Positions 1,988-15,943 of a stretch of DNA of 64,000 nt are shown here, piece by piece. Each line of letters opens with the position of its first letter. Within the stretch, counting starts at the first letter, position 1. The stretch covers positions 8,677 to 72,676 of the forward strand of contig JANXWX010000034.1 of NCBI GenBank assembly GCA_025350915.1, written 5' to 3'. This DNA is from Nitrosomonadales bacterium (GTDB lineage: Bacteria > Pseudomonadota > Gammaproteobacteria > Burkholderiales > Gallionellaceae). The translations under genes were made by a program, and so were the position numbers. Below the pieces are notes generated by a model. That model did no database searches, was not told the DNA's origin, and was given only the letters and a program-made list of their open reading frames with translations.

Positions 1988-2295
1988 AGTTTAAGGCGTT
2001 CCACGATACGACCATGTTTGAGATGTTCTTCAATAATTTCATCCAGATCATGCTCGTCCACATAGGTGTACCACACCGCCTCGGGATAAACGACCAATAC
2101 CGGGCCGTCTTCACACCTGTCCATGCAGCCAGCCGAATTTATTCGTATGCGATGTTCATCGGAAGAAAGCCCCATTTTATTTACCTTGCTTTTGACATAG
2201 TCGCGCATTTTCTGCGCGTTAAAATTGTTGCAGCAGGCTTCGCCGCCTTCACGCTGGTTGGTACAAAAAAATACATGGTGCTCGAAATAAGGCAT
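1984..2295 (-). CDS. thioredoxin-like [2Fe-2S] ferredoxin domain protein
   Basis: 103-aa ORF. The cysteine pattern HHVFFCTNQR..ACC...AGCMDRCEDGPV and the VVYPE..WY segment are typical of (2Fe-2S) ferredoxin-domain proteins. Confidence 0.8.
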   Translation of the reverse strand: MPYFEHHVFFCTNQREGGEACCNNFNAQKMRDYVKSKVNKMGLSSDEHRIRINSAGCMDRCEDGPVLVVYPEAVWYTYVDEHDLDEIIEEHLKHGRIVERLKL

Positions 2296-2352
2296 CGCGG
2301 AATTTATGAGGTTAAAGTTGAAGGGTGCAGCAGAAACGAAGGCGATATTTTA

Positions 2353-3426
2353 CTACTTTCGCTGCAAGGCCGTACGCCACAGATACACAAGCAACAGGAC
2401 AGGGAACAACAAATTAACCAGTTGGGTTAGGCCGTTATAGTTGAGCATGTGCAAGTAATGCCAGTGATACAAGCGCATAGCGGTGGAAGGTGAGCCGCTA
2501 AACAGCATATTTTGCACCAACATCAGGTAAGTCAGCGCTGCGATGCTGCTGATGCCCAGCAGCCAAGTGCGCGGAAGTTGCATGGTGATCATCAGTAATG
2601 CGATTCCTGCCGGCAACCCAAGCATTGCTTCGCTATCCAGCCATAAAAACAATGCCCACGATTTGAGCAAAATAGCCGCGGCGATAAACTTAATCAACAT
2701 GACGGTGCCAAGCACCACTAACAATAAATTGATCATATTTCGCCGCTCGCGCATGAGTGTTAACAGCAACAAGCCGAGCAACATTAAATTGAGCGCTACT
2801 TCGGAAAATTTGATGAAGCTGAAGGGTGACACTGGCACGATGTCAAAGGGCCAGCGAGCCACCGCGCTGACAAACATGCTGCCCAGCATGGGTAATGAAG
2901 GGTTGGATTGGGCGAATATCCATAAAAAGACCAGTGCCAGGCCGAAATCACTCAGCCTGCCATGCTTGAACCATGCGTCATGCAAAAGCTTGAAACGAGC
3001 CAGCCAAGTATGGCTTGAGAGAAATAAAGAAAAAGCCGTGCCACAGAAAGATCCGGCCGTGTTACTGAGCAAATCGCTATTTGAACTGACACGTGAGGGC
3101 AGATATATCTGCGCGTATTCCAGCAGCAGTGATAAACATAAACCGGATAAGGTAGCAAACAGCAGTGCATAAAAAGTGGAATAGCGGTAGCGAAACAAAT
3201 AGGCCAGCAAAATGCCAAAAGGCAAATACGCCAGGCCATTAATCGTAAAATCAAACCAGGTGAAGGTCTGGTAAATGGGCGCAGTTAACACATCAATAAA
3301 TGACAAGCCCTGCTCTTGCCATCCTGTAAACGGGATCAGGCTTGCATAGACGATAAACAGGGCGTAGCACACCGCAAGATAGCGGTGCAGTCGGTAGCGC
3401 GGGGTTAAATTGGTGATATCTCTCAA
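2353..3426 (-). CDS. VanZ family multi-pass membrane protein
   Basis: 357-aa very hydrophobic ORF. The N-terminal third contains the VanZ-like stretch LLLEYAQIYLPSRVSSNSDLLSNTAGSFCG. The C-terminal half adds further predicted TM helices. Confidence 0.72.
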   Translation of the reverse strand: MRDITNLTPRYRLHRYLAVCYALFIVYASLIPFTGWQEQGLSFIDVLTAPIYQTFTWFDFTINGLAYLPFGILLAYLFRYRYSTFYALLFATLSGLCLSLLLEYAQIYLPSRVSSNSDLLSNTAGSFCGTAFSLFLSSHTWLARFKLLHDAWFKHGRLSDFGLALVFLWIFAQSNPSLPMLGSMFVSAVARWPFDIVPVSPFSFIKFSEVALNLMLLGLLLLTLMRERRNMINLLLVVLGTVMLIKFIAAAILLKSWALFLWLDSEAMLGLPAGIALLMITMQLPRTWLLGISSIAALTYLMLVQNMLFSGSPSTAMRLYHWHYLHMLNYNGLTQLVNLLFPVLLLVYLWRTALQRK

Positions 3427-3585
3427 TTTGTATCCGTGTGAAATGTACTAGCCCTTGCAGGTTAATTGCACTATATGTTTTTGTCAAAAACATCAGCATA
3501 ATCATGTAAATCCGGCGTTGAGAATCATCGCCGCAAATGCGCAGGCGCATGCCTTCAGTATAAACACAATGCAGCTGAAATCGAC

Positions 3586-3969
3586 ATGACAAAAAAAATT
3601 GCGGGAATATTTTTAATATTGATAGCCAGTGGCGTATGGCTCTATCTGGATTTGCTTAACAAGCAGGAGTTGGGTAGCGCAGAACAAATACATCTGAGTG
3701 TAGAAACAGCGCGGGCAGAAGCCAAAAAACGGGCAGACATGAAGGAGAATTTTGAAAATCTCACGCTTATCTATTTAAATCACTGTCAGGTTGCAGCTGA
3801 AGATGCAAACAACAACTATATGGAAGTTGCGGAATTGGCAATGGCACCACGTAAAAATGGAAAGAAAGATGTACCGCAAATATTGGAAGAGGAGGCGGAA
3901 AAAATAAAAACGGCAGCAATGGCAGTATGCCAGAAAATATATAACGGACGCTTGCAAAGCGGTATATAA
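3586..3969 (+). CDS. hypothetical membrane-anchored protein
   Basis: 127-aa ORF with an N-terminal hydrophobic anchor (IAGIFLILIASGVWLYL) followed by a charged helical region. No recognisable family motif. Confidence 0.5.
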   Translation: MTKKIAGIFLILIASGVWLYLDLLNKQELGSAEQIHLSVETARAEAKKRADMKENFENLTLIYLNHCQVAAEDANNNYMEVAELAMAPRKNGKKDVPQILEEEAEKIKTAAMAVCQKIYNGRLQSGI

Positions 3970-4075
3970 GTTAATATTACGATAATGCAGCATGTTAAAA
4001 ATATGCAGAAAAACTAAACGCAGCGAAGTGCAAACCACTTTGCATTTCGCTATATAACCCGCATAGAAAGCCATT

Positions 4076-4996
4076 ATGTCAAAGATCCTGGCAACACTGT
4101 TCATGTCATCCGTATTCATTTTTTCAAGTAACGCGATAAATGCAGAAACCCCATCTGCTGATGGCGGTATGACCGCAGAGCAATTTCTTGCTACGCTTAA
4201 ATTCCAGAATGGAAAAATTACCTTACCCAATAACATCGCAACCCTGGATATGCCGCCGTCATTTCGCTATCTTGACCCTGCAGATACAGAGAAAATTCTG
4301 GTCAATGCATGGGGTAATCCCCCCGGCAGTAAAACATTGGGCATGATACTTCCATCAGACGTCAGCCCGCTTACAGAAAATAGCTGGGGCGTCATCATTT
4401 CCTACACCGACGATGGTCATATCAAGGATGATGATGCCGACAGCATAAAATATGACGATCTGCTCAAGGATATGCAAGACGCAGTAAAAGAGGCCAATGA
4501 AGCACGCAAGCAAAAAGGTTATGAAGCGATGACGTTGCTAGGCTGGGCAGAAGCACCCCACTACGATAAAGCGAGCCACAAATTTTACTGGGCTAAAGAG
4601 TACGTCACCGAAACACAGACAGGCACACATTCGCTGAATTACAACATCCGCGTATTGGGACGCAAAGGCGTGCTGGTATTAAATGCGGTGGCGGGTATGA
4701 ACCAGATTGATGCGATCAAAGGTGAAATGAAAAATGTCGTGGCCTTTACTGATTTTACCGCAGGCAATGGCTATAAGGACTTTGATGTGAGCACAGACAA
4801 AGTTGCCGAATACGGGTTGGCTGCGCTGGTTGCAGGCGGCGTGGCAGCCAAGCTGGGCTTCTTCGGCAAGATATTTGCGTTCCTGCTGCTGTTTAAGAAG
4901 TTCGTATTGATTGGCTTGGCCGCAGTTGGGGCCGGTTTCTATAAATTAATTGGCCGCAACAAAAAAGAAGCAAAGAACGAGAACGATCAAGCGTAG
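4076..4996 (+). CDS. DUF2167-type membrane-anchored protein
   Basis: 306-aa ORF. It has a signal peptide (LFMSSVFIFSSNAINA), a soluble domain with SWGVIISYTDDGHIKDDDADSIKYDDLLKDMQ, and C-terminal TM helices. This layout and motif match DUF2167 proteins as I remember them. Confidence 0.72.
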   Translation: MSKILATLFMSSVFIFSSNAINAETPSADGGMTAEQFLATLKFQNGKITLPNNIATLDMPPSFRYLDPADTEKILVNAWGNPPGSKTLGMILPSDVSPLTENSWGVIISYTDDGHIKDDDADSIKYDDLLKDMQDAVKEANEARKQKGYEAMTLLGWAEAPHYDKASHKFYWAKEYVTETQTGTHSLNYNIRVLGRKGVLVLNAVAGMNQIDAIKGEMKNVVAFTDFTAGNGYKDFDVSTDKVAEYGLAALVAGGVAAKLGFFGKIFAFLLLFKKFVLIGLAAVGAGFYKLIGRNKKEAKNENDQA

Positions 4997-5011
4997 CATT
5001 AGCCGTGCCAC

Positions 5012-5047
5012 AAAACCCCTGCAGAGAAAATTGCAGGGTTTTTTTTG
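5012..5047. terminator. bidirectional rho-independent terminator between convergent genes
   Basis: The sequence is aaaa-CCCTGCA-gagaaaat-TGCAGGG-tttttttt. A 7-bp GC-rich stem is flanked by an A-run and a T8 run. It sits in the 52-nt gap between the stops at 4996 (+) and 5049 (-). Confidence 0.65.
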
Positions 5048-5048
5048 G

Positions 5049-5588
5049 CTATTTCATACGCGAAGGCAATTTGATCGTTTCACCCGCAACCATAAATTTA
5101 CCCTTGCCGCGATGATGAAGTGTCTGCGGATTTTTTATCGCAGGATCCACCCACGCCTTGAGTACTTCAAGAATAAAAAAGTTATACGAGTTGACCAGCC
5201 GTGTATCTACAACTTTGCACTCCAGGCTGGCATAGCACTCTGCAAGCAGTGGAGCCTGCACCAGGCTTGCACCAACCGGCGTCAAACCGGTGCGCGCAAA
5301 CTTGTCCACCTTGCGCCCGCTACAGTTGCCGATGGTCACCACCTGCTTGGCTAAATCAACGGTCGGAATATTGATCACGCATTCGCGTGTGGCTTTCAGG
5401 GCTGCAAACGAATAGTTGTTGCCACTGATCAGACAACCCACCAAAGGCGGTTCAAACTCCATCATCATGTGCCATGACTGCGTCATGATATTGTGCGCAC
5501 CTTTATGGGAGGTGGTGATCAACACAACAGGGCCGGGTTCCAGCAAGGTGTAGACTTTGCCTAGAGGGAAGGATTTTTTCTTCTTCAT
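5049..5588 (-). CDS. flavin reductase family protein (FMN-binding split barrel)
   Basis: 179-aa ORF. PGPVVLITTSHKGAHNIMTQSWHMMMEFEPPLVGCLIS and RTGLTPV...APLLAECYASLECKV follow the flavin reductase-like domain pattern. Confidence 0.85.
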   Translation of the reverse strand: MKKKKSFPLGKVYTLLEPGPVVLITTSHKGAHNIMTQSWHMMMEFEPPLVGCLISGNNYSFAALKATRECVINIPTVDLAKQVVTIGNCSGRKVDKFARTGLTPVGASLVQAPLLAECYASLECKVVDTRLVNSYNFFILEVLKAWVDPAIKNPQTLHHRGKGKFMVAGETIKLPSRMK

Positions 5589-5816
5589 TACGGTTTCCTT
5601 TAAGTGTGCACAATACCCTGTTAGTTGTCAGTACAGTGACTTTTTAAGTCGGTAAAATCGATAGTAGTGAATGGCTGTTTTTCGGTGCGGACACACGCTC
5701 CTTCATTTCGGAAGGGCCGCTTTCTAAGTATTCCCGCCTTTCGTCCTACGATGCTCCCCGCCTTAAAACAGACCTTGGAACTGTGATATCACTTCGCGCA
5801 CAAGAACCAAATCGAT

Positions 5817-6527
5817 TTAAGAAAAGCCTTCAACAATATAAGTTGCGCCAAGTGAATTTGCCCATACTTGATCGAGTAAGGAGCGCGACGATGTGCTGGC
5901 TTTGTCATGCAGAGCATTCAAGAATGGAATGATACAAAGTTTCTGGCTTGCAATTATGGGAGCATTCCATCCAGGAGAATTCTTTAATTCTGCCCAATCT
6001 TCTGGGTAAAAATTTGCTACCACCACCTCACAAAGCAACACAACATCCAAAGGAAAATACAACCATCTTGGTTCTTTAATTGGCACTTCAAAAGTCTTGG
6101 TGTACCCAGGTGTATGCCCCCCAAATTGTAGGTGGAAGAGCGGGCCTTCCTGAAATTGATTCTTTGGGGAATTTGCGAAATCAATATGATGCTTGATTAA
6201 GACATTACCTTCGTCATCCAATACCTCCAATGCAAGATCAAGACGTTTAAAACAGACACCTCCTGCAGGGCTTCGATGGACACTGATGGAGGCATATATC
6301 TGTGGCTGAATAGTCTTATTTAAATGTCGATCATGTTTGCGCTTGAATACAATAGGATTAGATTTTGAAATTTCATATGACCATATGAATTTCTCTTTCG
6401 CATTAGCAACAGTGATTCTGGCTAATTCCTCAAAAACGTTCCCAGCCTCAATGATCTTCTTTTGATGAAGTGCCCGACCAGTCTGTCGAAGCGCATCTGC
6501 CATTTCTTTAGCAGTTGGGACACTCAT
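5817..6527 (-). CDS. hypothetical protein, last gene of the methyltransferase/GHKL-kinase operon
   Basis: 236-aa ORF. Its ATG overlaps the stop of the upstream gene (ATGA at 6524-6527). I recognise no motif. It has no TM segment and no signal peptide. Confidence 0.7.
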   Translation of the reverse strand: MSVPTAKEMADALRQTGRALHQKKIIEAGNVFEELARITVANAKEKFIWSYEISKSNPIVFKRKHDRHLNKTIQPQIYASISVHRSPAGGVCFKRLDLALEVLDDEGNVLIKHHIDFANSPKNQFQEGPLFHLQFGGHTPGYTKTFEVPIKEPRWLYFPLDVVLLCEVVVANFYPEDWAELKNSPGWNAPIIASQKLCIIPFLNALHDKASTSSRSLLDQVWANSLGATYIVEGFS

Positions 6528-7690
6528 GATGGCATCTGAGTTTGCGGTTGAATTTTTCCGTTCCTGATTTTTTCAGCCAGACTTTCATCGGAATCATCGA
6601 TAACCAAATCACGGCTTTCATAGGCACCGGTCTGAATACAGTACCAGCAAATTCTTGATGGCTCCAAGAAAGGTTGATAGTTGGCATCGTAGCCCAAAAC
6701 AGAATGTTTCAGCTCGGTGGGGTGATCGCAACTTGAACAGGCAACCCAGAAATATTCATCTGAAGATTTACTCCACTTGGATATAGCAGGCTTTAGCTCG
6801 ATCTGTAGTGCATTCGATAGCTTCGCGACCCTTTCAGAACCTGCCAACGAGCCTAATGACGCACCCAAAGTTTCTTTGCTCCATGCATCTAGCCGATGCC
6901 ACCACCAGCGCGGCCACCCCTCACATAACAGACCGCTATAGCCTAGTTTAAAATCAAACAGCTTGGCTTTAAGCTGGGGAATATTGGGAGAGTCTGGAGA
7001 TACACCAAGCCTCGCCAATAAATGCTCATCAGACAATAGGATGCCGGGGCGCCGAATCAACAACGCCATTACCTTCGCGACGATTTGATGGGGGTATTGG
7101 ATTTTAGCGATGGCACGTATTGCTTGATGATTTAACACCATCTCAGCCTCATGCGAATCCAGCTCAAGATGGATATTTGGCGCAACGGGATTATTATTGT
7201 TCTTGGTATAACTGGCATGAATAGTTTTATAAGCTGTCGCCATACTTGCTATACGACTGGCTGCCAGCGCTAACGGCTGCGGAGAGACGAGCTCTTCTTT
7301 CGATATAACAAGATCAAAAAGATCTTCTGCCGTCAAGTCAGCATGAAAAATACGTTTTATATAATCTTCTTGTGAAAGCAGAATAAGCGGCAAGTCACAG
7401 TTCGGTTGGTCAATAGCACGGTCACGTATCTGTTGAGCTAAAGCGCTTGCACGATATTTATTTTTTTGCCCCCCACCTTCAGCATCCTTGATCGGTACTT
7501 CGTCAAGACGAAAGTCAATTGCGGCAAAGTCGTAATGTTGATCTATTAAATGACCCGCAAGTTCGGTCACTTCATGTTCGGGTAGGCGAAATTCGATATT
7601 CAGCTGGCCACTTGAGTTGTTGGTAAGCAACTCGGCATATTTCTTTTCCTCTTCCTTGTCATCAATAAAAACACCTTTAAACAAGATCAC
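6524..7690 (-). CDS. receiver (REC)-like domain protein with C-terminal CxxC...CxxC zinc-ribbon / possible His-Me finger
   Basis: 388-aa ORF. The N-terminus has VFIDD (D10 D11), AAIDFRL (D59), PLILLSQ (S106) and DLVISKEE (K131), matching CheY-like positions. The C-terminus has CEGWPRWWWHRLDAW and C318-SS-C-DH..N337..C348-WY-C351. The track start is GTG at 7690. TTG at 7684 has better spacing to the AGGAGG box at 7689-7694. Confidence 0.7.
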   Translation of the reverse strand: MILFKGVFIDDKEEEKKYAELLTNNSSGQLNIEFRLPEHEVTELAGHLIDQHYDFAAIDFRLDEVPIKDAEGGGQKNKYRASALAQQIRDRAIDQPNCDLPLILLSQEDYIKRIFHADLTAEDLFDLVISKEELVSPQPLALAASRIASMATAYKTIHASYTKNNNNPVAPNIHLELDSHEAEMVLNHQAIRAIAKIQYPHQIVAKVMALLIRRPGILLSDEHLLARLGVSPDSPNIPQLKAKLFDFKLGYSGLLCEGWPRWWWHRLDAWSKETLGASLGSLAGSERVAKLSNALQIELKPAISKWSKSSDEYFWVACSSCDHPTELKHSVLGYDANYQPFLEPSRICWYCIQTGAYESRDLVIDDSDESLAEKIRNGKIQPQTQMPS

Positions 7691-7694
7691 CTCC

Positions 7695-9989
7695 TTATTG
7701 TTGTGCTTTTGCAGCTGGGACTAAGAAATCAAATCGACAATTAAATCCCTGCTCGGTATCTCCAAGGCGAACATGCCCACTATTGGCGCTTGCGATATCA
7801 GAAACGATCTTCAATCCCAACCCAGAACCGGGGCCAACTAATTCATCATCGCCATATTGGTGCGTTGTAAAAAAAGCATCGAATATCTTATCCGCAATCG
7901 CTGGATCAACACCCGTTCCAGTATCCTGAAAACCGATACGGACAAACTCGCCTTCACGATCTGCGCTGATTTTAATTTTTCTATTGCCAGTATTGGCACG
8001 ATCCATTGCCTTGATTGAATTTGTGAGGAAATTGAATAACACAGAATCAATTTCGCTCCGATGCATAGAAGTAGTGCGAAGATAAGGCGGGTCAATAGTT
8101 ACCTCAAACTCAACCTGCCTCGTATCAAGATAGTGTTTGAATTGGGATACGAATTCGGTAATTACGCTGTGAATGGCGATCTCATTTTTTTCACGCTTGG
8201 CTGTATGGGCTATCAGGCTCATCACATAGGAGGCCAAATCATTAAGCTGACTAAGGCTCGCTTCTACGTCATCAATGGGCTTCTTGGCTTTATCCTTTGC
8301 GCCGAGGTCGGTCAGCAATCCTTTCAAATTCAGGATGCTGCCGCTGAAACCATTCAGCGCCCCGCGTATTTCATGACTGAATACGGCTATCGAGGTACCC
8401 AATGAAGCCAGGATTCGCAACAACTCCTCATAACGTAGATGCACTTTTTCGCGTTGTTCCTGTTCCTGCTCAAAACTTTCAACGATCTTCTGAACTTCCT
8501 CTTGAGCGTCTTTCAGCACATCAACTGGTACAGCGTTTCCCCCCGAAGAGCCACTTTGTATTGATGTGGCCGACACGTCTTCAAATATCTTTTTTACACG
8601 TTCGGAAGGTTTGCCGCGCTTAGAAGTAAAATCTTTTTGACCTGCTGTCTGTTTTCTTTCGCGAGCAGCCGCAACGCGCATAGCTGCCCACTCAAGTCCA
8701 CCTCTGACAAAATCGGCAAGTTGTGCAAATGCTTCATTTTCAATCAGGCCTTCTCGACTGCTGGTTTCTTCGAGAAGCACGTTCTCATCGCTTGCTAGTT
8801 CGACTTGCCCAAAAAAATTGTTATTGCTCGCAGGAATTAGCAGGCTTCTACGGCCAGTGTCATATGCAAGGCGAAGCCAATCATCGCGAGGCTCACCATA
8901 AGGAAGAACGCGGAAGCCATCACGATACAAGCGAATTCCCCCATATTCAGCACCAACGTCCTGTGCCGTCCTGCTTGAAAATCCTTCGATTAGCTCTGAG
9001 GAATAAATAAAGTAATCTGCCTCGAAGGTTGAAACACCCACCAGATCAAAGTTGCGATCTAGCGTTATTTGATCTGTAAACCCAAGTCTTTTTGATTCGA
9101 GCAGAATGTGCGCATGGCCATCTTTGTCAATATGCCCACTGATCCGAGCTAACCTTTGATCAAGGAAAGTTTTATCGAGAGAGAATTCCATTCTGACTTC
9201 ATCAGAATTTTTCCCATTGATAACTACTGAGAAGCCTGGGTCAGGCTCTACCCCCTTATTTTTAACTAGTGCTTTACCTCGATACGTTCGCCTGACCTTA
9301 TATGGTGGCTGGAGCAGAATGACGGATTTCCACACGCGCTTCAATTGAGCTTCTGTCCATCTGTCACGCATCGTAACAATGGTTAATTTCGTTCCGTGCG
9401 CCTCTGGTGGCTTATCAAAGCGTTCAACTGAAAACGTCAGCATGCCTATATCTACATCAGGCTTAAACACATCGTCCCAGTTGAATTGCACGCGTACACC
9501 TTGGGTCTCGCCGATCACACCTGACTCAAGAATCAGTTCTTTTCCAAGACGTTCAACCGCAAACCGCCCAATGCCTTTGCGCCCAGCTCGTGAACGCTTA
9601 AACCTATCGGAGATTGGGGATAGCTCCTTGTCATTGGTCGAAAGCCGCATCCATGAGCTACGTATTGTTTCCTCAGTCATTCCCGAGCCGTCGTCAGCAA
9701 TGGTGAGAACCCCGCCAGGTTTATCAAACGCAACGAAATCGATTCTTACTTCTGTAGCATCCGCATCGTAGGCGTTCTTAATTAGTTCACTGAGAGCGGT
9801 TTCTTGGCGACCGACGAGTTCAAAGCCTAGGCGATGAATATGCCGCGCATCGATTGAAAATCGTACTGAGCTTTTATCACATTCAAGTATTTTTTTATTG
9901 AGCTCCGCAATAGCCTGAAAATCGACATGCTCCTGCTCAAGCTCTATTGAAAGCTGCTTTTTAAGCGTGTTAAGAAGATCAGATTTCAT
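7695..9989 (-). CDS. dual GHKL protein: MORC/HSP90-like ATPase N-terminus fused to histidine-kinase transmitter
   Basis: 764-aa ORF. The N-terminal Bergerat fold has SELIKNAYDADATEV (N box), IADDGSGM (G1) and GRKGIGRFAVERLG (G2). The C-terminal transmitter has the H box VFSHEIRGALNG (His539), N box LFNFLTNSIKAM, G1 QDTGTGV, F box IFDAFFTT and G2 GPGSGLGLKIV. No TM segments. Confidence 0.85.
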   Translation of the reverse strand: MKSDLLNTLKKQLSIELEQEHVDFQAIAELNKKILECDKSSVRFSIDARHIHRLGFELVGRQETALSELIKNAYDADATEVRIDFVAFDKPGGVLTIADDGSGMTEETIRSSWMRLSTNDKELSPISDRFKRSRAGRKGIGRFAVERLGKELILESGVIGETQGVRVQFNWDDVFKPDVDIGMLTFSVERFDKPPEAHGTKLTIVTMRDRWTEAQLKRVWKSVILLQPPYKVRRTYRGKALVKNKGVEPDPGFSVVINGKNSDEVRMEFSLDKTFLDQRLARISGHIDKDGHAHILLESKRLGFTDQITLDRNFDLVGVSTFEADYFIYSSELIEGFSSRTAQDVGAEYGGIRLYRDGFRVLPYGEPRDDWLRLAYDTGRRSLLIPASNNNFFGQVELASDENVLLEETSSREGLIENEAFAQLADFVRGGLEWAAMRVAAARERKQTAGQKDFTSKRGKPSERVKKIFEDVSATSIQSGSSGGNAVPVDVLKDAQEEVQKIVESFEQEQEQREKVHLRYEELLRILASLGTSIAVFSHEIRGALNGFSGSILNLKGLLTDLGAKDKAKKPIDDVEASLSQLNDLASYVMSLIAHTAKREKNEIAIHSVITEFVSQFKHYLDTRQVEFEVTIDPPYLRTTSMHRSEIDSVLFNFLTNSIKAMDRANTGNRKIKISADREGEFVRIGFQDTGTGVDPAIADKIFDAFFTTHQYGDDELVGPGSGLGLKIVSDIASANSGHVRLGDTEQGFNCRFDFLVPAAKAQQ

Positions 9990-11703
9990 CGCGTAAGCGC
10001 CTTCTCCGATTCCTTACGATTTCTAATTCTCTGGCCAATGCGAAAATTAGTTGTTCATGGACAGATTTTTTTCTATTCCCAAAAATAAACATGTTAGCAA
10101 CTTGCTGCGCCCCCTCGGAATCACCTTTACGGAAACATGCGTCAATTTGTGAAAAGGCAGCATCAGTCTGCTCAACTGTCTTATCTTTTGGGAGGATGAG
10201 CCTTAATCTGTTTGCCTCGGATGGCTCAATTTTCAGGACTCCAGAACCATAACTCCGGCCTACATACTCAGCGGATAGCTGGCTAAAAGTAGAACACAGA
10301 GAGATAACTAACTGTTTCCTTGTTTGTTGTAATACAGATGGATTAAAAAATACTCGATGAATAGAATTCGTCGCATTGATTGCGGCATTGTTCAGCACCA
10401 TTCTCGGTCCATCGTGCATCATGTAAGAGAAGAAAGCATCAGGGATACGCCCATCATCGGCTCTCAACCAATCTTTTCGGCGGCGAAATGTACTGTTTTG
10501 TAGGCGCTCATTTTCTGGAAACGTTGCCGCATAACGCACCGCTGCATGTGACATCCTCTTGTCAGGTCGATGAAATAATAGATAGGGTTTGTCCTGAGAT
10601 TTCCAATCTTCAATATCCATTTCGTTGATCTGTGTGCCTTGGATATACGCGAATTTTGAAAGAATGGGCTTAAGGTTACGTTCACCAAGATGGTGAAGTT
10701 TGGCGCGGCTTGGTGACATGATGAAGAATCGATTTGCGCCAGTCACAGTGCCTATCAATACCTTGCACAGATCGCCCAGTCTCACTGCGTCTGTGCTGTC
10801 GGCCAAGGTGTCGTAGATACTTGTTTCATCCAGAGCAGTATGCAATTGCTTCAGAGCGATTGGCTTATCCAGAGATGAACTAACTTGGCTTTTGGTAGCT
10901 ATCACACTATCTAGTTGATCCGCCGATGTACAGTGGCTAATTTGAATGCCCTTAGATGACCCACCAAAGCCAGAACACAGCAGAATTACTGTACGCTCTT
11001 CCACTCCGTCCGATAGAAACATTCTTTCGGTTAGCTGAATAGCGATAACCTCATCAAAGCTAGCGGCAATATCCTCGCGCAAGCTTGTCGCATAATCCGC
11101 TTCCAAAAAACTCCCAGGGAGCACCCATGCCATCCTGCCGCCGGGCATAAGGAAGGACATGGCATGCAATACGAAATAAGCCCATAAGCTAGCTCTGCCG
11201 TTAATTTTAATTCCTGTTTCTTCTTTCCATGCCTGAACTGAAGCCTTCTGGTTCGCAGACATGTTGTGTAGGGAGACGTAAGGTGGATTTCCTATGACTA
11301 CATCAAATGCTTGCGCAGAAAAGCTTTGTGGGGATACCGCAACAAAATCAGAAAGTACGTAACGGCGCTCAATACTCAAAATACCGAGCTTTTCAAAAAG
11401 ATATGCGAATGCTTGTGGGTCGATATCACAACCATAAAGTTGATTCTTGGGGGATGGGCTACCCAGTTCAGATAGCCTATCTACCGCCGCCTGAAGAAAG
11501 CCACAACCGCCAAACCCAGGCTCTAATACATGCTCATTACGTGAGCGAATTGCCCACTTGGCAAGAAGTGAAGCAAGGACACTTGGAGTGTAATATGCAC
11601 CCAACTCCCTTTGGGTAAGAGGTTGGCTAGAAGGATCGCTTTGTGCTGTAGTCGGCATTACATCAAAACCAGCAGTAGACGTTGCAGTAGTGTTCCTAAC
11701 CAT
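9979..11703 (-). CDS. N6-adenine DNA methyltransferase, gamma class (Eco57I/TaqI-like with C-terminal target-recognition domain)
   Basis: 574-aa ORF. GAYYTPSVLASLL, AdoMet motif I VLEPGFGGCGFL and motif IV VIGNPPYVS occur in gamma-class order. The C-terminal LGDLCKVLIGTVTGANRFFI resembles the TaqI-type specificity domain. Its stop overlaps the next gene by 11 nt. Confidence 0.85.
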   Translation of the reverse strand: MVRNTTATSTAGFDVMPTTAQSDPSSQPLTQRELGAYYTPSVLASLLAKWAIRSRNEHVLEPGFGGCGFLQAAVDRLSELGSPSPKNQLYGCDIDPQAFAYLFEKLGILSIERRYVLSDFVAVSPQSFSAQAFDVVIGNPPYVSLHNMSANQKASVQAWKEETGIKINGRASLWAYFVLHAMSFLMPGGRMAWVLPGSFLEADYATSLREDIAASFDEVIAIQLTERMFLSDGVEERTVILLCSGFGGSSKGIQISHCTSADQLDSVIATKSQVSSSLDKPIALKQLHTALDETSIYDTLADSTDAVRLGDLCKVLIGTVTGANRFFIMSPSRAKLHHLGERNLKPILSKFAYIQGTQINEMDIEDWKSQDKPYLLFHRPDKRMSHAAVRYAATFPENERLQNSTFRRRKDWLRADDGRIPDAFFSYMMHDGPRMVLNNAAINATNSIHRVFFNPSVLQQTRKQLVISLCSTFSQLSAEYVGRSYGSGVLKIEPSEANRLRLILPKDKTVEQTDAAFSQIDACFRKGDSEGAQQVANMFIFGNRKKSVHEQLIFALARELEIVRNRRRRLRDEI

Positions 11704-11722
11704 ATAGCCTAACTTTTAGTAA

Positions 11723-11751
11723 ATTATATACGTGACCAACTTAATTGGCAC
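11723..11751 (-). promoter_or_regulatory. candidate sigma70 promoter for the four-gene operon
   Basis: On the minus strand, GTGCCA (-35, 4/6) is followed by a 17-nt spacer and TATAAT (-10, 6/6). It ends about 19 nt before the methyltransferase ATG. That leaves a very short leader and a weak RBS, so it is tentative. Confidence 0.3.
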
Positions 11752-12074
11752 GCCAGCAGACGCTTTAAGCTGTAAATAAACAAAGACATCGTAACGTCTC
11801 TATTATTGACTAGCTATTTTCTTTGCGGGGAATCCTAACAGATTTCAGCGCATGAGTGGCATTGATAAGTAGTTATACCGCTCCAGCTTGATTTCTGATG
11901 CACGTGTAGGTCGTGAATTGAACCGAAGCGGACTTCCAAAGTATAGGGGCATATGCCCGCTTTGGCCGAGTAGTGGACATTGATGTTAGTTGAGCACCGA
12001 GTGTTGCCTAGTAGCCGCATACATAAAGTGAGTATTATGAATAGATTTGGCATATTAGTAATGCTGCTGATCTT

Positions 12075-12540: not shown

Positions 12541-12840
12541 TTAAAAGAAATCTTCTTCCCGTTGGTGTCGCACAGCTAGTACGGTTACTGTCCGGTTATC
12601 CTCGATTTCAAATAAGGCAACATAACCGTTTGCGCCAAAACTGATAATTAATTCACGCAGCAAGGGATGTTCCGGTGATACCTTGCGGCAACTGAATGGA
12701 AAAGTACGCAGGAATTCAATGCCTTTTGCAATAGCAGAGCGGGCACGCTTGGCGGCCTTTAAATCACGTTCCGCGAGAAAATCAAACAAGTGTTGCAGAT
12801 CTTTCGCTGCCGCAGGCGTAAATCGAACTGTGTAGTTCAC
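12541..12840 (-). CDS. type II toxin-antitoxin system RelE/ParE family toxin
   Basis: 99-aa ORF. It begins FTPAAAKDLQHLFDFL and ends with the core LRELIISFGANGYVALFEIEDNRTVTVLAVRHQREEDF, typical of ParE-like toxins. It overlaps the upstream antitoxin gene by 4 nt. Confidence 0.85.
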   Translation of the reverse strand: MNYTVRFTPAAAKDLQHLFDFLAERDLKAAKRARSAIAKGIEFLRTFPFSCRKVSPEHPLLRELIISFGANGYVALFEIEDNRTVTVLAVRHQREEDFF

Positions 12841-13124
12841 TTGCGGGAAAGTGCCTTGCCTGATTTCACTATCGTTTTATCCAGACTGGTTAGCATTTCT
12901 TCTGCTGAAATATATTTTCCAGTTAGGCGCGCCTCATCTCTGGCAGCTAAACCGCGTGCAATAAATTCTTTCTGCATCGCTCGTCGTTGAATATTGAATT
13001 GGACTGACTCCAGCAAAAAACCGGAAAGGGTTTCGCCTTCTATCAGGGCGGCCTCGGCAGCATCGCGTACCTTTTCGCTTACTCGCAACGAAGGGAACGT
13101 GGAAGTTTTGATCATTGTTTTCAT
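12837..13124 (-). CDS. ribbon-helix-helix (ParD/CopG-like) antitoxin
   Basis: 95-aa ORF directly upstream of, and overlapping, the ParE-like toxin. The N-terminal FPSLRVSEKVRDAAEAAL..GETLSGFLLESV fits an RHH DNA-binding fold. AAGGAG RBS precedes the ATG. Confidence 0.72.
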   Translation of the reverse strand: MKTMIKTSTFPSLRVSEKVRDAAEAALIEGETLSGFLLESVQFNIQRRAMQKEFIARGLAARDEARLTGKYISAEEMLTSLDKTIVKSGKALSRK

Positions 13125-13192: not shown

Positions 13193-15943
13193 TTAGTGAG
13201 CTGCTTCCCAGTTAGCGCCCATCCCTAGACCGACTTCCAGTGGCACTTTTAGTTCGGCTACATGACACATTAAATCCGGTAATTTTTCTTTCACTAAAGC
13301 CAACTCCTTATCCGGTACTTCTAGCACCAGTTCGTCATGCACCTGCATGATTAATCGTGTTTGCAGCTGTTCTTTCTCAATCCAGTTCTGCACCGCCACC
13401 ATCGCCAGCTTGATCAGGTCAGCCGCCGTGCCTTGCATCGGGGCGTTGATCGCAGCGCGTTCGGCAGCCTGGCGGCGCATGCCGTTGCCGCCGTTGATTT
13501 CGGGCAGCCACAGGCGGCGGCCGAATACGGTTTCGACGTAGCCTTGCTGCTTGGCAGTATCACGTGTGGTTTGCATGTAGTTCGCCACACCGGGGTAGCG
13601 GGCGAAGTAGCGTTCGATATAGGCCTGTGCCGCGCTGCGCTCGATGCCGAGCTGGCTGGCGAGGCCGAACGCGGACATGCCGTAGATCAAACCGAAGTTG
13701 ATTACCTTGGCATAGCGGCGCTGTTCGTTGCTGACCGCCTCCGGCTCGGCCGCAAAGATCTCGGCGGCGGTGGTGCGGTGCACGTCGAGGCCGTGGGCGA
13801 AGGCATGCAACAGGCCTGTATCACTCGATAGATGCGCCATGATGCGTAGCTCGATTTGTGAATAGTCGGCGGACACGATATGGCTGCCGGGGTCGGCGAT
13901 AAACGCTTCGCGGATGCGGCGGCCTTCGGCGGTGCGCACCGGGATGTTTTGCAGGTTGGGGTCATTGGAGGCGAGGCGTCCGGTAATCGCCACGGCCTGT
14001 GCGTAGTTGGTATGCACCCGGCCGGTTTGCTGATTGACCATCAACGGCAATTTATCGGTGTAGGTGGATTTGAGCTTCGCCATGCCGCGATATTCGAGTA
14101 ATAATTTTGGCAGCGGATAGTCCAGGGCCAGTTCTTGCAGTACTTCTTCGTCGGTGGAGCGCGAGCCGGTTGCGGTTTTTTTCTTCGACGGAATGCCGAG
14201 TTTGTCGAATAATATTTCCTGTAGTTGCTTGGGTGAAGCGAGGTTGAAGGGCTGGCCAGCTAGCTCGTAGGCCTGTGTTTCAAGCGTAAGCAACTTCTCA
14301 CCCAGCTCGCGACTTTGTTCGTTGAGCAGCTTGCTGTCGAGCAGCACGCCATTGCGTTCCATCACAAATAGCACTTGCCGTGCTGGCATTTCAATATCGC
14401 GATAAACACGTTCAAGTTTTCCTTGCGCCTTGAGTTGCGGCAACAGAGTTTGGTGCAATTGCAGGGTGATGTCGACATCCTCGGCGGAATATTGTGTGGC
14501 TTTGTCGAGCTCAACCTGATCAAAGCCGATTTGTTTGGCGCCCTTGCCTGCCACCTCTTCAAAGGTGATGGTCTTGAGGCCAAGGTGGCGCATCGCGAGG
14601 TCATCCATATTGTGCGTGCGATGGCTTTCCAGCACGTAGGATTGCAGCAGCGTGTCTTCGGCAATACCTGCCAGCTTGATGCCGTGGTTGGCAAAAATAT
14701 GTTGGTCGTATTTCAAGTTTTGCCCAAGCTTTTTATGCGATGTGCTTTCCAGCCACGGCTTGAGTTTTTGCAGGACGTGTTCGCGGTTTAATTGCGCGGG
14801 TGCGCCGGAATAGTGATGGGCCACGGGAATATAGATCGCGTGGTGCGCCTCGATCGCGATTGAGATGCCCACCAGTTGAGAAGTCATACTATCGAGTCCG
14901 GTGGTTTCGGTATCCACGCACACCAGTTCAGCCTGCAAAATTTTTGCGAGCCAAGTGTCGAGTTGCGCGTCGGTCAGGATGCATTCATAACGTGTGGCGG
15001 GTGCAACGACCTCACCACTGCTGGCATCGAACATGCTGCCCTGTTGCGGGGAGGCGCTGGGTTCTTGTTTGGCTGCATGAGCGGAATTGGCAACAGGTGC
15101 GGGCAGTACATCGCGTAGCAGGGTTTTAAAGCCAAAGCCCTGTAACAACGTGCGCAAATTTTCGCTATCCTGCGGCGGGGCAACCAGTTCATCAAAATGT
15201 ACCGGTAGCGGCACATCGCATTTCACGGTGATCAACTTGCGCCCCATCGGCAACCATTCCAGCGCACTGCGCAGATTTTCACCCACGGCACCACTTACTT
15301 CGTCGGCATGGGTGATCAGGTTATCCAGCGTGCCATACTGGTTGAGCCATTTTACGGCGGTCTTGGGTCCGCATTTGTTGACACCGGGCACGTTGTCGAC
15401 CGTGTCACCGACGAGTGTAAGGTAATCTACGATGCGCTCAGGTGGCACGCCAAATTTGGCGAGCACACCGGCCTCATCGAGTGTTTCATTGCTCATGGTG
15501 TTGATTAGTGTCACCTGGCTGTTCACCAGCTGCGCGAGATCTTTATCGCCGGTTGAAATGACACAGCGGCTCCCGCCTTGGGTGGCCTGCTGTGCCAGCG
15601 TACCGAGTACATCATCCGCCTCTACGCCATCTATCATCAGGATATTCCAGCCGAAAGCGGCAATGGCTTTGTGCAGGGGCTCTATCTGTGCGGCAAGCTC
15701 CGGCGGCATCGAGGGACGATGGGCTTTGTATTCGGGGTACCAGTCGTCGCGGAAGGTTTTTCCCTTGGCATCAAATACGCACGCGCTATAATCCGACGGG
15801 TAATCGGCACGCAGCCGGCGCAGCATATTGAGCACACCCTGTATGGCCCCGGTCGGTTCGCCGGTGGGGCTGCGCAAATCTGGCATCGCATGAAATGCGC
15901 GATACAGGTAAGATGAACCATCTACTAATAACAATGTTTTCAT
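13193..15943 (-). CDS. polA: DNA polymerase I
   Basis: 916-aa ORF. The 5'-nuclease N-terminus reads LLVDGSSYLYRAFHA. The 3'-5' exonuclease has VCVDTETTGLD. The polymerase motifs are DYSQIELRIMAH, RRYAKVINFGLIYG and QVHDELVLEV. Confidence 0.97.
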   Translation of the reverse strand: MKTLLLVDGSSYLYRAFHAMPDLRSPTGEPTGAIQGVLNMLRRLRADYPSDYSACVFDAKGKTFRDDWYPEYKAHRPSMPPELAAQIEPLHKAIAAFGWNILMIDGVEADDVLGTLAQQATQGGSRCVISTGDKDLAQLVNSQVTLINTMSNETLDEAGVLAKFGVPPERIVDYLTLVGDTVDNVPGVNKCGPKTAVKWLNQYGTLDNLITHADEVSGAVGENLRSALEWLPMGRKLITVKCDVPLPVHFDELVAPPQDSENLRTLLQGFGFKTLLRDVLPAPVANSAHAAKQEPSASPQQGSMFDASSGEVVAPATRYECILTDAQLDTWLAKILQAELVCVDTETTGLDSMTSQLVGISIAIEAHHAIYIPVAHHYSGAPAQLNREHVLQKLKPWLESTSHKKLGQNLKYDQHIFANHGIKLAGIAEDTLLQSYVLESHRTHNMDDLAMRHLGLKTITFEEVAGKGAKQIGFDQVELDKATQYSAEDVDITLQLHQTLLPQLKAQGKLERVYRDIEMPARQVLFVMERNGVLLDSKLLNEQSRELGEKLLTLETQAYELAGQPFNLASPKQLQEILFDKLGIPSKKKTATGSRSTDEEVLQELALDYPLPKLLLEYRGMAKLKSTYTDKLPLMVNQQTGRVHTNYAQAVAITGRLASNDPNLQNIPVRTAEGRRIREAFIADPGSHIVSADYSQIELRIMAHLSSDTGLLHAFAHGLDVHRTTAAEIFAAEPEAVSNEQRRYAKVINFGLIYGMSAFGLASQLGIERSAAQAYIERYFARYPGVANYMQTTRDTAKQQGYVETVFGRRLWLPEINGGNGMRRQAAERAAINAPMQGTAADLIKLAMVAVQNWIEKEQLQTRLIMQVHDELVLEVPDKELALVKEKLPDLMCHVAELKVPLEVGLGMGANWEAAH

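Follow-up and report, generated by a model that had tools for sequence, protein, structure and literature searches.

A candidate four-gene defence cassette built around an Ambrosia-type histidine kinase in a Gallionellaceae contig

The cassette and related described systems

Bacteria sense their surroundings mainly through two-component signalling, which has been tied to immunity only recently, by the systems Detocs and Ambrosia. Here we describe a cassette of four genes on a stretch of 64,000 nucleotides (nt) from contig JANXWX010000034.1 of a Nitrosomonadales bacterium of the Gallionellaceae (assembly GCA_025350915.1); this whole stretch is referred to below as the window. The cassette encodes a DNA methylase, a soluble histidine kinase with two ATPase modules, a receiver protein and, in what we call gene 4, a small protein from an undescribed family. 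From its homology, anatomy and distribution we consider it reasonably probable that the cassette is a horizontally mobile anti-invader system of the Ambrosia kind, similar to restriction-modification (R-M) systems and run by a cytoplasmic two-component relay. The four genes and the block in which they lie are as follows.

9979–11703, minus strand: gene 1, gamma-class N6-adenine DNA methyltransferase of 574 amino acids (aa), from Pfam and PADLOC matches
7695–9989, minus strand: gene 2, soluble GHKL-histidine kinase of 764 aa, from Pfam matches and homology to AbrB
6524–7690, minus strand: gene 3, receiver protein, from the open reading frame (ORF), with 388 aa from a GTG start at 7690 or, as seems likelier, 386 aa from a TTG start at 7684
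5817–6527, minus strand: gene 4, 236 aa, undescribed family with no library match and a confident structural model
5644–11969, minus strand: apparent mobile block, consisting of the four genes, an upstream leader of about 170–260 nt and about 170 nt downstream, from blastn against related loci

Ambrosia is an anti-phage system of Pseudomonas aeruginosa that was validated in a 2025 preprint (bioRxiv 10.1101/2025.09.30.679545). It comprises AbrR (a HipB-like XRE regulator, first in the cluster), AbrA (an N6 methylase of the type II R-M kind), AbrB (kinase/HATPase), AbrC (receiver domain, REC) and AbrD (HNH endonuclease). As reported in the same preprint, all tested domain mutants lose protection, including AbrC D60A, with AbrB N40A and AbrD H60A also on the list, the abrA and abrD regions are induced on infection, and phage grown on AbrA-expressing cells is still restricted; the hidden Markov model cut-off used by its authors was 500 bits. 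With the protein sequences taken from Table S1 of that preprint, a BLASTP comparison of AbrB residues 1–400 with the window kinase gave a collinear alignment of AbrB 12–397 with kinase residues 44–417 (29.5% identity, E 5e-35), in which kinase N72 aligns with AbrB N40. The alignment extends over the full length of the window kinase (E 4e-52) when the kinase of a complete Ambrosia-type locus on plasmid P2 of Deinococcus gobiensis is used, a locus that has the order XRE, Eco57I-type methylase, kinase, REC and HNH and that we verified against AbrB, AbrC and AbrD. AbrB (747 aa) and the window kinase (764 aa) are thus true homologues with the same two HATPase domains. The two systems also share the order of methylase, GHKL-kinase, receiver and small fourth gene, both have a gamma-class N6-adenine methylase, and in an hhalign comparison of gene 3 with AbrC-type receivers (probability 87.6%, E 3.5e-6) the phospho-accepting aspartate D59 stands opposite AbrC D60.

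However, the window cassette differs from Ambrosia in several respects. It has no XRE gene corresponding to AbrR, and neither an XRE gene nor any other plausible ORF was found in the 371-nt gap upstream of the methylase (11704–12074). Its methylase is of another subfamily, which matches AbrA over the S-adenosylmethionine core only (E 4e-4) and the Deinococcus methylase with E 8e-9. Its receiver is much longer than AbrC (388 against 209 aa) owing to a distinct C-terminal module of about 220–250 aa. The slot of the AbrD HNH protein is taken by the unrelated 236-aa family of gene 4, for which hhalign against AbrD-type HNH proteins returned a probability of 0.1%, and Pfam and PADLOC matched no HNH domain in gene 3 or gene 4. 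Finally, the reported instances of Ambrosia are mostly from Pseudomonadales, whereas cassettes of the window type occur in Alpha-, Beta-, Gamma- and Deltaproteobacteria and in Bacteroidota. Lacking an XRE and an HNH gene and having a receiver of another architecture, the cassette is Ambrosia-like but falls outside Ambrosia as defined, and relative to Ambrosia the short receiver and the HNH protein seem to have been replaced together by the long receiver and gene 4. In every locus examined gene 4 adjoins the long receiver, and so the C-terminal module of the receiver and gene 4 are probably a working pair. It is a matter of speculation that the receiver, having gained a possible DNA-binding module, may have taken over the regulatory role of the lost XRE protein. 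An earlier note on this DNA, made by reading the sequence without database searches, had held that no named system has this composition; that statement overlooked both Ambrosia (10.1101/2025.09.30.679545) and the HEF_HK pairs described in 2021 (PMC8011034). With regard to its further point, whether a database match would place the cluster in an already named system, the kinase is homologous to that of Ambrosia and the gene order is the same, but the missing XRE and HNH genes and the other type of receiver keep the cassette apart from it.

Soluble kinases that combine HATPase_c_3, a DHp domain ('HEF_HK') and HATPase_c were described computationally by Bellieny-Rabelo et al. in 2021 (PMC8011034). 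The family was first noticed there by its induction in a plant pathogen during host infection; 91.6% of the HEF_HK kinases were linked to a receiver-like protein without any other domain, and the pairs were enriched beside R-M genes, mostly C5 methylases with Vsr or HNH_2 (PMC8011034). The window cassette resembles these pairs in the architecture and solubility of its kinase, in the linked receiver-like protein and in the linkage to R-M genes. It differs from them in its methylase, which is mostly of the C5-cytosine type there, whereas cassettes of the window type always have an Eco57I-type adenine methylase, found next to the kinase-receiver pair in every complete locus, together with gene 4, which is not described in that purely computational study (PMC8011034). 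The HEF_HK model PF19191 was not reported for the window kinase, for 120 of its homologues or for relatives from Campylobacter, Enterobacter and Deinococcus; PF19192 (Response_reg_2) was not reported in 27 gene 3 family members at E-values up to 10, a search that had no positive control for the model, nor in any other receiver-like protein scanned, Ambrosia-type and Campylobacter-type relatives included. Both models are perhaps very narrow or absent from the library. An E. coli copy of a related kinase-receiver pair, which was sought as a positive control for both models, gave no match. A GHKL-kinase, a 340-aa receiver and a convergent dcm gene lie on locus L024 and 40 other Campylobacter plasmids (for example NZ_CP092024 5401–9854), which are conjugative, measure about 50–75 kb, carry VapD, HicAB and an AAA ATPase nearby and fit the C5-methylase type of 2021.

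The paraMORC R-M systems contain a GHKL ATPase followed by an S5-fold domain, and the 2008 MORC paper by Iyer, Abhiman & Aravind describes no kinase fusion or receiver partner (PMC2292703). The window kinase shares with paraMORC, BbrUII and HgiDII proteins the N-terminal HATPase_c_3 GHKL module and the linkage to a DNA methylase; it differs from them in that they carry a nuclease or act with helicases or nucleases, whereas its GHKL module is fused to a histidine-kinase transmitter. Detocs reportedly consists of a TPR-kinase (DtcA), a REC buffer (DtcB) and a REC-PNP effector (DtcC), the PNP effector of which is said to degrade ATP. In both systems a cytoplasmic kinase would pass its phosphoryl group by His-Asp transfer to a receiver protein responsible for the output, but by Pfam and PADLOC the window cassette has no TPR, buffer receiver or PNP and only one receiver protein, and Detocs has no methylase. 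PADLOC gave no Detocs-related match, and whether its 2023 release contains Detocs models was not checked; the cassette and Detocs are unrelated beyond the generic kinase and REC folds. As for the MADS system (mad1–mad8), only the methylase gave a match, a partial one to mad2 (PADLOC 6e-18; NCBIfam 31 bits against a cut-off of 720), and none of the other three proteins matched a MADS model in PADLOC or NCBIfam.

The four genes and their products

The four minus-strand ORFs at 5817–11703 lie head to tail and encode 574, 764, 388 (or 386) and 236 aa according to the ORF listing. In the sequence, an 11-nt overlap (9979–9989) holds both the methylase stop and the kinase ATG, and the receiver and gene 4 join in an ATGA overlap (6524–6527). 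Full-length homologues are numerous for all four, which is why we regard them as real genes rather than chance ORFs. The sequence of the kinase-receiver junction is TAAGGAGGTGATCTTG. A gap of 4 nt (7691–7694) exists here only if gene 3 starts at GTG 7690, a codon that overlaps the AAGGAGG (Shine-Dalgarno) box, while TTG 7684 is located 5 nt after GGAGG (window 7682–7697). This overlap, the fact that gene 3 homologues begin with MFKG, and the 386-aa gene, beginning 10 nt past the kinase stop, that was called on a metagenome contig of identical sequence together indicate that gene 3 probably starts at TTG 7684, leaving a gap of 10 nt instead of 4. It should be noted here that receiver residues are numbered according to the 388-aa version, and that D59 becomes D57 with the TTG start. 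The earlier note had given the same four ORFs with the same coordinates and the same 11-nt and ATGA overlaps, all of which agree with the ORF listing and the sequence; its 4-nt gap inside an AGGAGG box is correct for the GTG start, but not for the likelier TTG start. The revised start is a minor correction that leaves the argument for translational coupling unaffected, and the packing and overlaps of the genes bear out the earlier note's reading of one coupled cassette. A promoter-like site upstream has 10 of 12 consensus matches, and the region contains no more sites of this kind than chance would give; about 170 nt around it are conserved in the related loci L006 and L007 and belong to the block.

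11723–11751, minus strand: promoter-like site from a consensus scan, GTGCCA and TATAAT with a spacer of 17 nt, some 20 nt before the methylase ATG

The kinase consists of two ATPase parts joined by a conserved middle region.

9345–9863, minus strand: N-terminal MORC/paraMORC-like GHKL ATPase, aa 43–215, with E68, N72, D99xGxG and G136xKGxG
8490–9344, minus strand: middle conserved region, aa 216–500, with the invariant YRDGFRVxPYG...DW at 8895–8927
7713–8453, minus strand: histidine-kinase transmitter, aa 513–759, with DHp (H539 codon at 8373–8375) and then the N, G1, F and G2 boxes

Pfam places HATPase_c_3 at aa 63–175 and HATPase_c at aa 646–759. The N-terminus matches the NCBIfam model for the N-terminus of BbrUII/HgiDII restriction enzymes (1.5e-20), a match that stops at about aa 215, and the PADLOC model REase_II (1.3e-14) covers this ATPase part only; NCBIfam kinase models align from about aa 513 onwards, for example AtoS over aa 513–758 (1.3e-24). 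An alignment of 21 homologues with identities down to 25% shows no variation in ELIKNAYDAD, DDGSGM, GRKGIGRFA, FSHEIRG or the N, G1, F and G2 boxes, nor in H539, E540, N653, N657, D689xGxG, F703 and G721xGxG of the transmitter. Y355, R356, F359, R360, P363, G365, D370 and W371 are equally invariant in the middle region, which also aligns with AbrB in BLASTP.

The methylase shows the features of a gamma-class enzyme (Pfam N6_Mtase 4e-16, Eco57I 1.5e-15 and M_Eco57I_C 8e-11; PADLOC MTase_II 1e-80).

11497–11523, minus strand: FxGxG motif of gene 1, from a motif scan
11278–11289, minus strand: NPPY of gene 1, aa 139–142, from a motif scan
about 10192–10836, minus strand: Eco57I-type C-terminal (target-recognition) domain of gene 1, Pfam M_Eco57I_C

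Its history seems to differ from that of the other three genes. At locus L008 the identities to the window are 80% for the kinase, 72% for the receiver and 63% for gene 4, but only 38% for the methylase, and at locus L025 the corresponding values are 63%, 48%, 46% and 37%. The methylase thus appears to have been exchanged independently of its three partners. Such an exchange would make a cognate nuclease-methylase pair with one shared specificity hard to sustain, and it suggests that the kinase, the receiver and gene 4 probably read no fixed DNA sequence of their own; the specificity would then come from the methylase, or the mark would be recognised whatever its sequence context. The cassette lies at 4674–10711 in L008, a metagenome-assembled genome (MAG) of Gallionella sp., and at 8119–14186 in L025, where the methylase gene call gives no more than 381 aa, with M_Eco57I_C as its sole domain.

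The receiver protein has no match in Pfam, NCBIfam or PADLOC, and its domains were assigned from a structural model and from profile comparisons.

7286–7690, minus strand: REC domain of gene 3, aa 1–135, D59 codon at 7514–7516, from AlphaFold, Foldseek and hhalign
6527–7198, minus strand: C-terminal module of gene 3, aa 165–388, from the secondary structure of the model
aa 200–250 of gene 3, minus strand: helical region, from the AlphaFold model
6893–6919, minus strand: GWPRWWWHR motif in the C-terminal module of gene 3
6728–6739 (C318/C321) and 6638–6649 (C348/C351), minus strand: four-Cys element at the C-terminal end of gene 3

The AlphaFold model is confident (predicted local distance difference test, pLDDT, 87.5; predicted template-modelling score, pTM, 0.85), and all top Foldseek matches in the PDB are receiver domains (template-modelling score, TM, about 0.72–0.74). 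D10, D11, D59, S106 and K131 are conserved and lie at the ends of model strands 1, 3, 4 and 5. Among 34 family members, the C-terminal half conserves H201, Y251, G253, R261, W263, R287, C318 and R346 and has no conserved acidic residue. This combination of conserved arginines and aromatic residues with the absence of a conserved acidic residue makes it look like a binding rather than a catalytic module. Among the closer homologues the four-Cys element has one invariant residue, C318, and C321, C348 and C351 are almost always present; in the broader family only C318 is kept at 90% or more. A weak Pfam match to the Cys-containing part of GpA_ATPase occurs in 10 of 27 family members. No structural relative of the C-terminal module was seen in the Foldseek lists (PDB, viral), which were filled by receiver-domain matches. 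An HNH reading of the CxxC-DH...CxxC element was rejected, the DH not being conserved and no acidic or metal-ligand position being conserved after the second CxxC.

Gene 4 appears to represent a family that has no sequence or structural relative among those searched.

6003–6203, minus strand: conserved core of gene 4, with H114xD116, GPxxH132xQxGG, PR154W and CExxxAN

It has no match in Pfam, NCBIfam or PADLOC, and a profile search against PDB sequences gave nothing below E 0.5. The model is confident (pLDDT 89.2, pTM 0.88), and its comparison with the PDB by Foldseek gave nothing better than E 0.18, with TM below 0.2. The family itself is large: a search of 1.84 billion proteins with its profile gave 958 clusters at 50% identity, and the best 150 of these 958 clusters are all stand-alone proteins of 71–274 aa (mostly 210–260 aa), so that no fusion to a known domain was found among them. 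Over 40 diverse members the core reads H114xD116, P129xxH132xQxG136G137 and P153R154, with H132, G136 and R154 invariant and H114 and D116 nearly invariant. The identities at L008 and L025 given above also show that gene 4 diverges faster than the kinase, and effectors and specificity factors of conflict systems often diverge fast. The idea of a cryptic HNH, His-Me or other known nuclease received no support from Pfam, NCBIfam, PADLOC, the PDB profile search, Foldseek or hhalign; cupin, 2-oxoglutarate-oxygenase, Vsr and Serratia-nuclease readings of the HxD...H...R core were likewise dropped as unsupported, since the fold search saw none of them. Carriage by phages was set aside because only one viral contig carrying gene 4 was found.

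Most of what the earlier note had read from these proteins agrees with the searches. Its NPPY gamma-class adenine methyltransferase with an Eco57I-like specificity domain is matched by Pfam and PADLOC, and its Bergerat ATPase joined to a complete histidine-kinase transmitter by Pfam, NCBIfam and the invariant motifs of the 21 homologues. The DD, D, S and K residues that it placed at CheY-like positions are conserved and sit at the strand ends of a confident REC-fold model. In the CxxC-DH..N..CxxC element the cysteines proved conserved among closer homologues, but the 'DH' after the first CxxC did not. Gene 4, in which it recognised nothing, has no Pfam, NCBIfam, PADLOC, PDB-sequence or Foldseek relative, and in keeping with its failure to see a nuclease motif in the operon, the library scans, Foldseek and hhalign found no endonuclease domain. 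Of the analyses that it proposed, Foldseek on the AlphaFold models of the two small proteins gave REC matches for gene 3 and none for gene 4, and PADLOC on the window proteins gave MTase_II for gene 1, REase_II for the N-terminus of gene 2 and nothing for genes 3 and 4.

Conservation, mobility and genomic context

A genome scan seeded with gene 4 yielded 16 loci, from Gallionellaceae, Sphingomonas, Aurantimonas, Stenotrophomonas, Lysobacterales, Moraxellaceae, Accumulibacter, Dechloromonas, a deltaproteobacterial MAG and Bacteroidales, and all four genes were present in 15 of them. The same was true for five of five contexts found with the kinase as seed, and the co-occurrence of the four genes in unrelated genomes, which the earlier note had proposed to examine, is borne out. 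The sixteenth locus (L011, Dechloromonas hankyongensis, 9046–10687) retains only a shortened receiver (316 aa) and gene 4, with minus-strand ORFs in place of the kinase and the methylase, and is probably a decayed copy. The kinase, the receiver and gene 4 always follow one another in this order, as a rule with overlaps of 4 nt, and the methylase is found in three placements: upstream in the same direction, downstream in the same direction, or downstream in convergent orientation. The same neighbours accompany a second tier of gene 4 relatives. A distant cassette on a plasmid of Hymenobacter sp. PAMC 26628 (L022, NZ_CP014303 1–12254) has a kinase with 34% identity, a gene 4 relative of 289 aa and a different Eco57I-type methylase, and it adjoins a Piwi-domain (pAgo) gene and a gene for a 1118-aa DNA methyltransferase.

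Comparison by blastn with related Gallionellaceae showed homology only over 5644–11969 (L006, 88%) and 5803–11862 (L007, 83%), with unrelated flanks, from which it appears that the cassette moves as a discrete block of about 6.2 kb in close relatives. The guanine-plus-cytosine (GC) content of the block is 0.44–0.46, against about 0.50 further along the window. A low GC content (0.44–0.47) is found throughout window 2000–12000, against about 0.50–0.54 in most of the window; this low-GC stretch is wider than the 6.2-kb block and takes in VanZ, DUF2167 and flavin-reductase genes. No terminal or flanking repeats, tRNA attachment site or structured RNA (Rfam) were found around the block. Tn7-like genes (TnsA-like, rve or Mu-transposase, TniB, TniQ) adjoin the cassette at L004/L005 (15101–18313) and at L025 (3262–7699), which suggests that the cassette is carried there as transposon cargo. 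The Tn7-like genes of L004 are located just downstream of dnaA-dnaN-recF-gyrB. When the 113 flanking ORFs of 14 genome loci were run through PADLOC, a survey that had no background control, the matches included the models TniQ (3) and TnsB (2), as well as Avs2, a type I R-M system, Septu PtuA and PDC-S51. Many metagenome contigs with close homologues of the kinase are only 6–9 kb long, about the size of the cassette, a size that fits assembly breaks at the borders of a block that occurs in varied contexts within one community.

In the window itself, the 11704–12074 gap is followed upstream by a lipoprotein-like ORF and then by a ParE toxin with its partner. This pair (12541–13124, minus strand) comprises a ParE-family toxin of 99 aa (Pfam ParE_toxin 2.5e-17) and an overlapping upstream ORF of 95 aa that is probably its antitoxin, and it is located between the cassette and polA (13193–15943). 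A mobile or defence-island context, which the earlier note had proposed to look for, is supported by block movement and by the Tn7-like and defence neighbours elsewhere; the copies in the window and at locus L026 have no defence neighbours.

Proposed mechanism and alternative explanations

The functional steps proposed here are all inferred from the observed anatomy, conservation and homology. Judging by its family membership, the Eco57I-type N6-adenine methylase would write an N6-methyladenine (m6A) mark, which may either protect self or mark the target; self-marking is not to be assumed, because Ambrosia still restricts phage from AbrA-expressing cells. The kinase would sense infection or foreign DNA via its paraMORC-like ATPase and middle region and would autophosphorylate H539, a step for which the invariance of the motifs of both ATPases and of the phospho-accepting histidine argues, as does the need for the AbrB asparagine in Ambrosia defence. 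The phosphoryl group would then pass to D59 of the receiver, as suggested by the adjacency and translational coupling of the two genes, by their invariant active-site residues and by the alignment with AbrC D60. Once phosphorylated, the receiver would act through its C-terminal helical and four-Cys module, which in our view binds DNA, and would increase cassette expression, an effect demonstrated in Ambrosia, and/or recruit or activate gene 4. Gene 4, which occupies the HNH position of Ambrosia-type loci and has a conserved HxD...H...R core, would be the likeliest effector, probably as a metal-dependent enzyme with a nucleic-acid substrate.

These parts differ in how firmly we hold them. That the genes form a defence cassette using His-Asp transfer is likely, and the chances that gene 4 is its effector are evenly balanced. 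A mainly transcriptional output falls a little short of an even chance, and direct activation of gene 4 is doubtful. The earlier note had proposed a phosphorelay-controlled, R-M-like defence system; this idea gains a precedent in the homologous Ambrosia, in which AbrB N40A and AbrC D60A abolish defence, but for the window cassette it is drawn from that homology. Several observations weigh against the Ambrosia-like defence reading. Pfam, NCBIfam, PADLOC and Foldseek found no recognisable nuclease or effector domain in the cassette, PADLOC in its 2023 release has no model for genes 3 and 4, and the case for gene 4 as a putative effector draws on its position and conserved polar residues only. 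BLASTP and profile searches detected no similarity between the window receiver and AbrC outside the REC fold, and the possibly winged-helix-like character of the helical region of gene 3 was read by eye from the secondary structure of the model and has no match. In addition, the survey of defence neighbours had no background control, and the copies at L026 and in the window lie among housekeeping or ordinary genes without defence neighbours.

A bolder version of the same scheme would make gene 4 the founder of a new catalytic fold, an HxD...H...R nucleic-acid enzyme that is licensed post-translationally by contact with the phosphorylated receiver. The C-terminal module of the receiver would then have co-evolved with gene 4, the paraMORC-like ATPase would read DNA, and the system would be relay-gated restriction and not a transcriptional circuit; we consider this unlikely. 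The absence of a recognisable nuclease could also have a more conventional cause, namely that the cassette is a type II R-M system in which gene 4 is an ordinary endonuclease of unrecognised fold, while the kinase and receiver serve as a C-protein-like timer that delays restriction until the new host is methylated. Relatives of type II endonucleases often escape detection, the methylase always lies next to the other genes, and the XRE/C-protein-like regulator of Ambrosia-type loci is absent here while the receiver has gained a possible DNA-binding module. However, the exchange of the methylase at L008, where gene 4 is still 63% identical, fits poorly with a cognate pair, a 764-aa double ATPase with all its motifs invariant is a heavy device for mere timing, and methylation did not protect phage in Ambrosia, so that we regard this explanation as quite improbable.

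Two further explanations do without a DNA-cleaving gene 4. In one of them, the relay would trigger abortive infection or depletion by switching on gene 4 as a toxin against a host metabolite, RNA or protein, with a side role for the methylase. Detocs offers the example of a phosphorelay that drives a non-nuclease effector, and the HxD...H...R core of gene 4 is enzyme-like without a nuclease signature. Yet the strict linkage to a DNA methylase, the kinase N-terminus shared with the BbrUII/HgiDII restriction enzymes and the DNA nuclease in the homologous slot of Ambrosia-type loci all indicate DNA as the substrate, and we give this explanation little credence. In the other, the cassette would be no defence system at all but an epigenetic module, in which a two-component system controls, or is controlled by, an orphan adenine methylase, and gene 4 is an accessory signalling protein. 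The lack of a recognisable nuclease, the location of some copies among housekeeping genes and the discovery of the 2021 family through its induction in a plant pathogen during host infection (PMC8011034) would agree with this. It is very improbable, however, in view of the patchy distribution across phyla and the movement as a discrete block, the Tn7-like cargo and the defence neighbours, the homology of the kinase to a system with an anti-phage phenotype, and the fast divergence of gene 4 relative to the kinase.

The theme of kinase, receiver and methylase is already known, having been described in 2021 and demonstrated in 2025, and for this reason we lower the claim to novelty. The novelty that is left lies in a widespread branch whose receiver carries an uncharacterised output module and whose candidate effector has no sequence or structural relative. 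PADLOC (2023 release) has no entry for genes 3 and 4 and so does not annotate this branch as defence. The Ambrosia-type kinase thus emerges as the hub of much wider systems with exchangeable parts across several phyla, and one large branch has swapped the HNH nuclease and the short receiver for two proteins of obscure mechanism. The exchange of the methylase offers a way into self/non-self discrimination by an R-M-like system that has no matched nuclease, and the mechanism of gene 4, once solved, could reveal a new effector fold.

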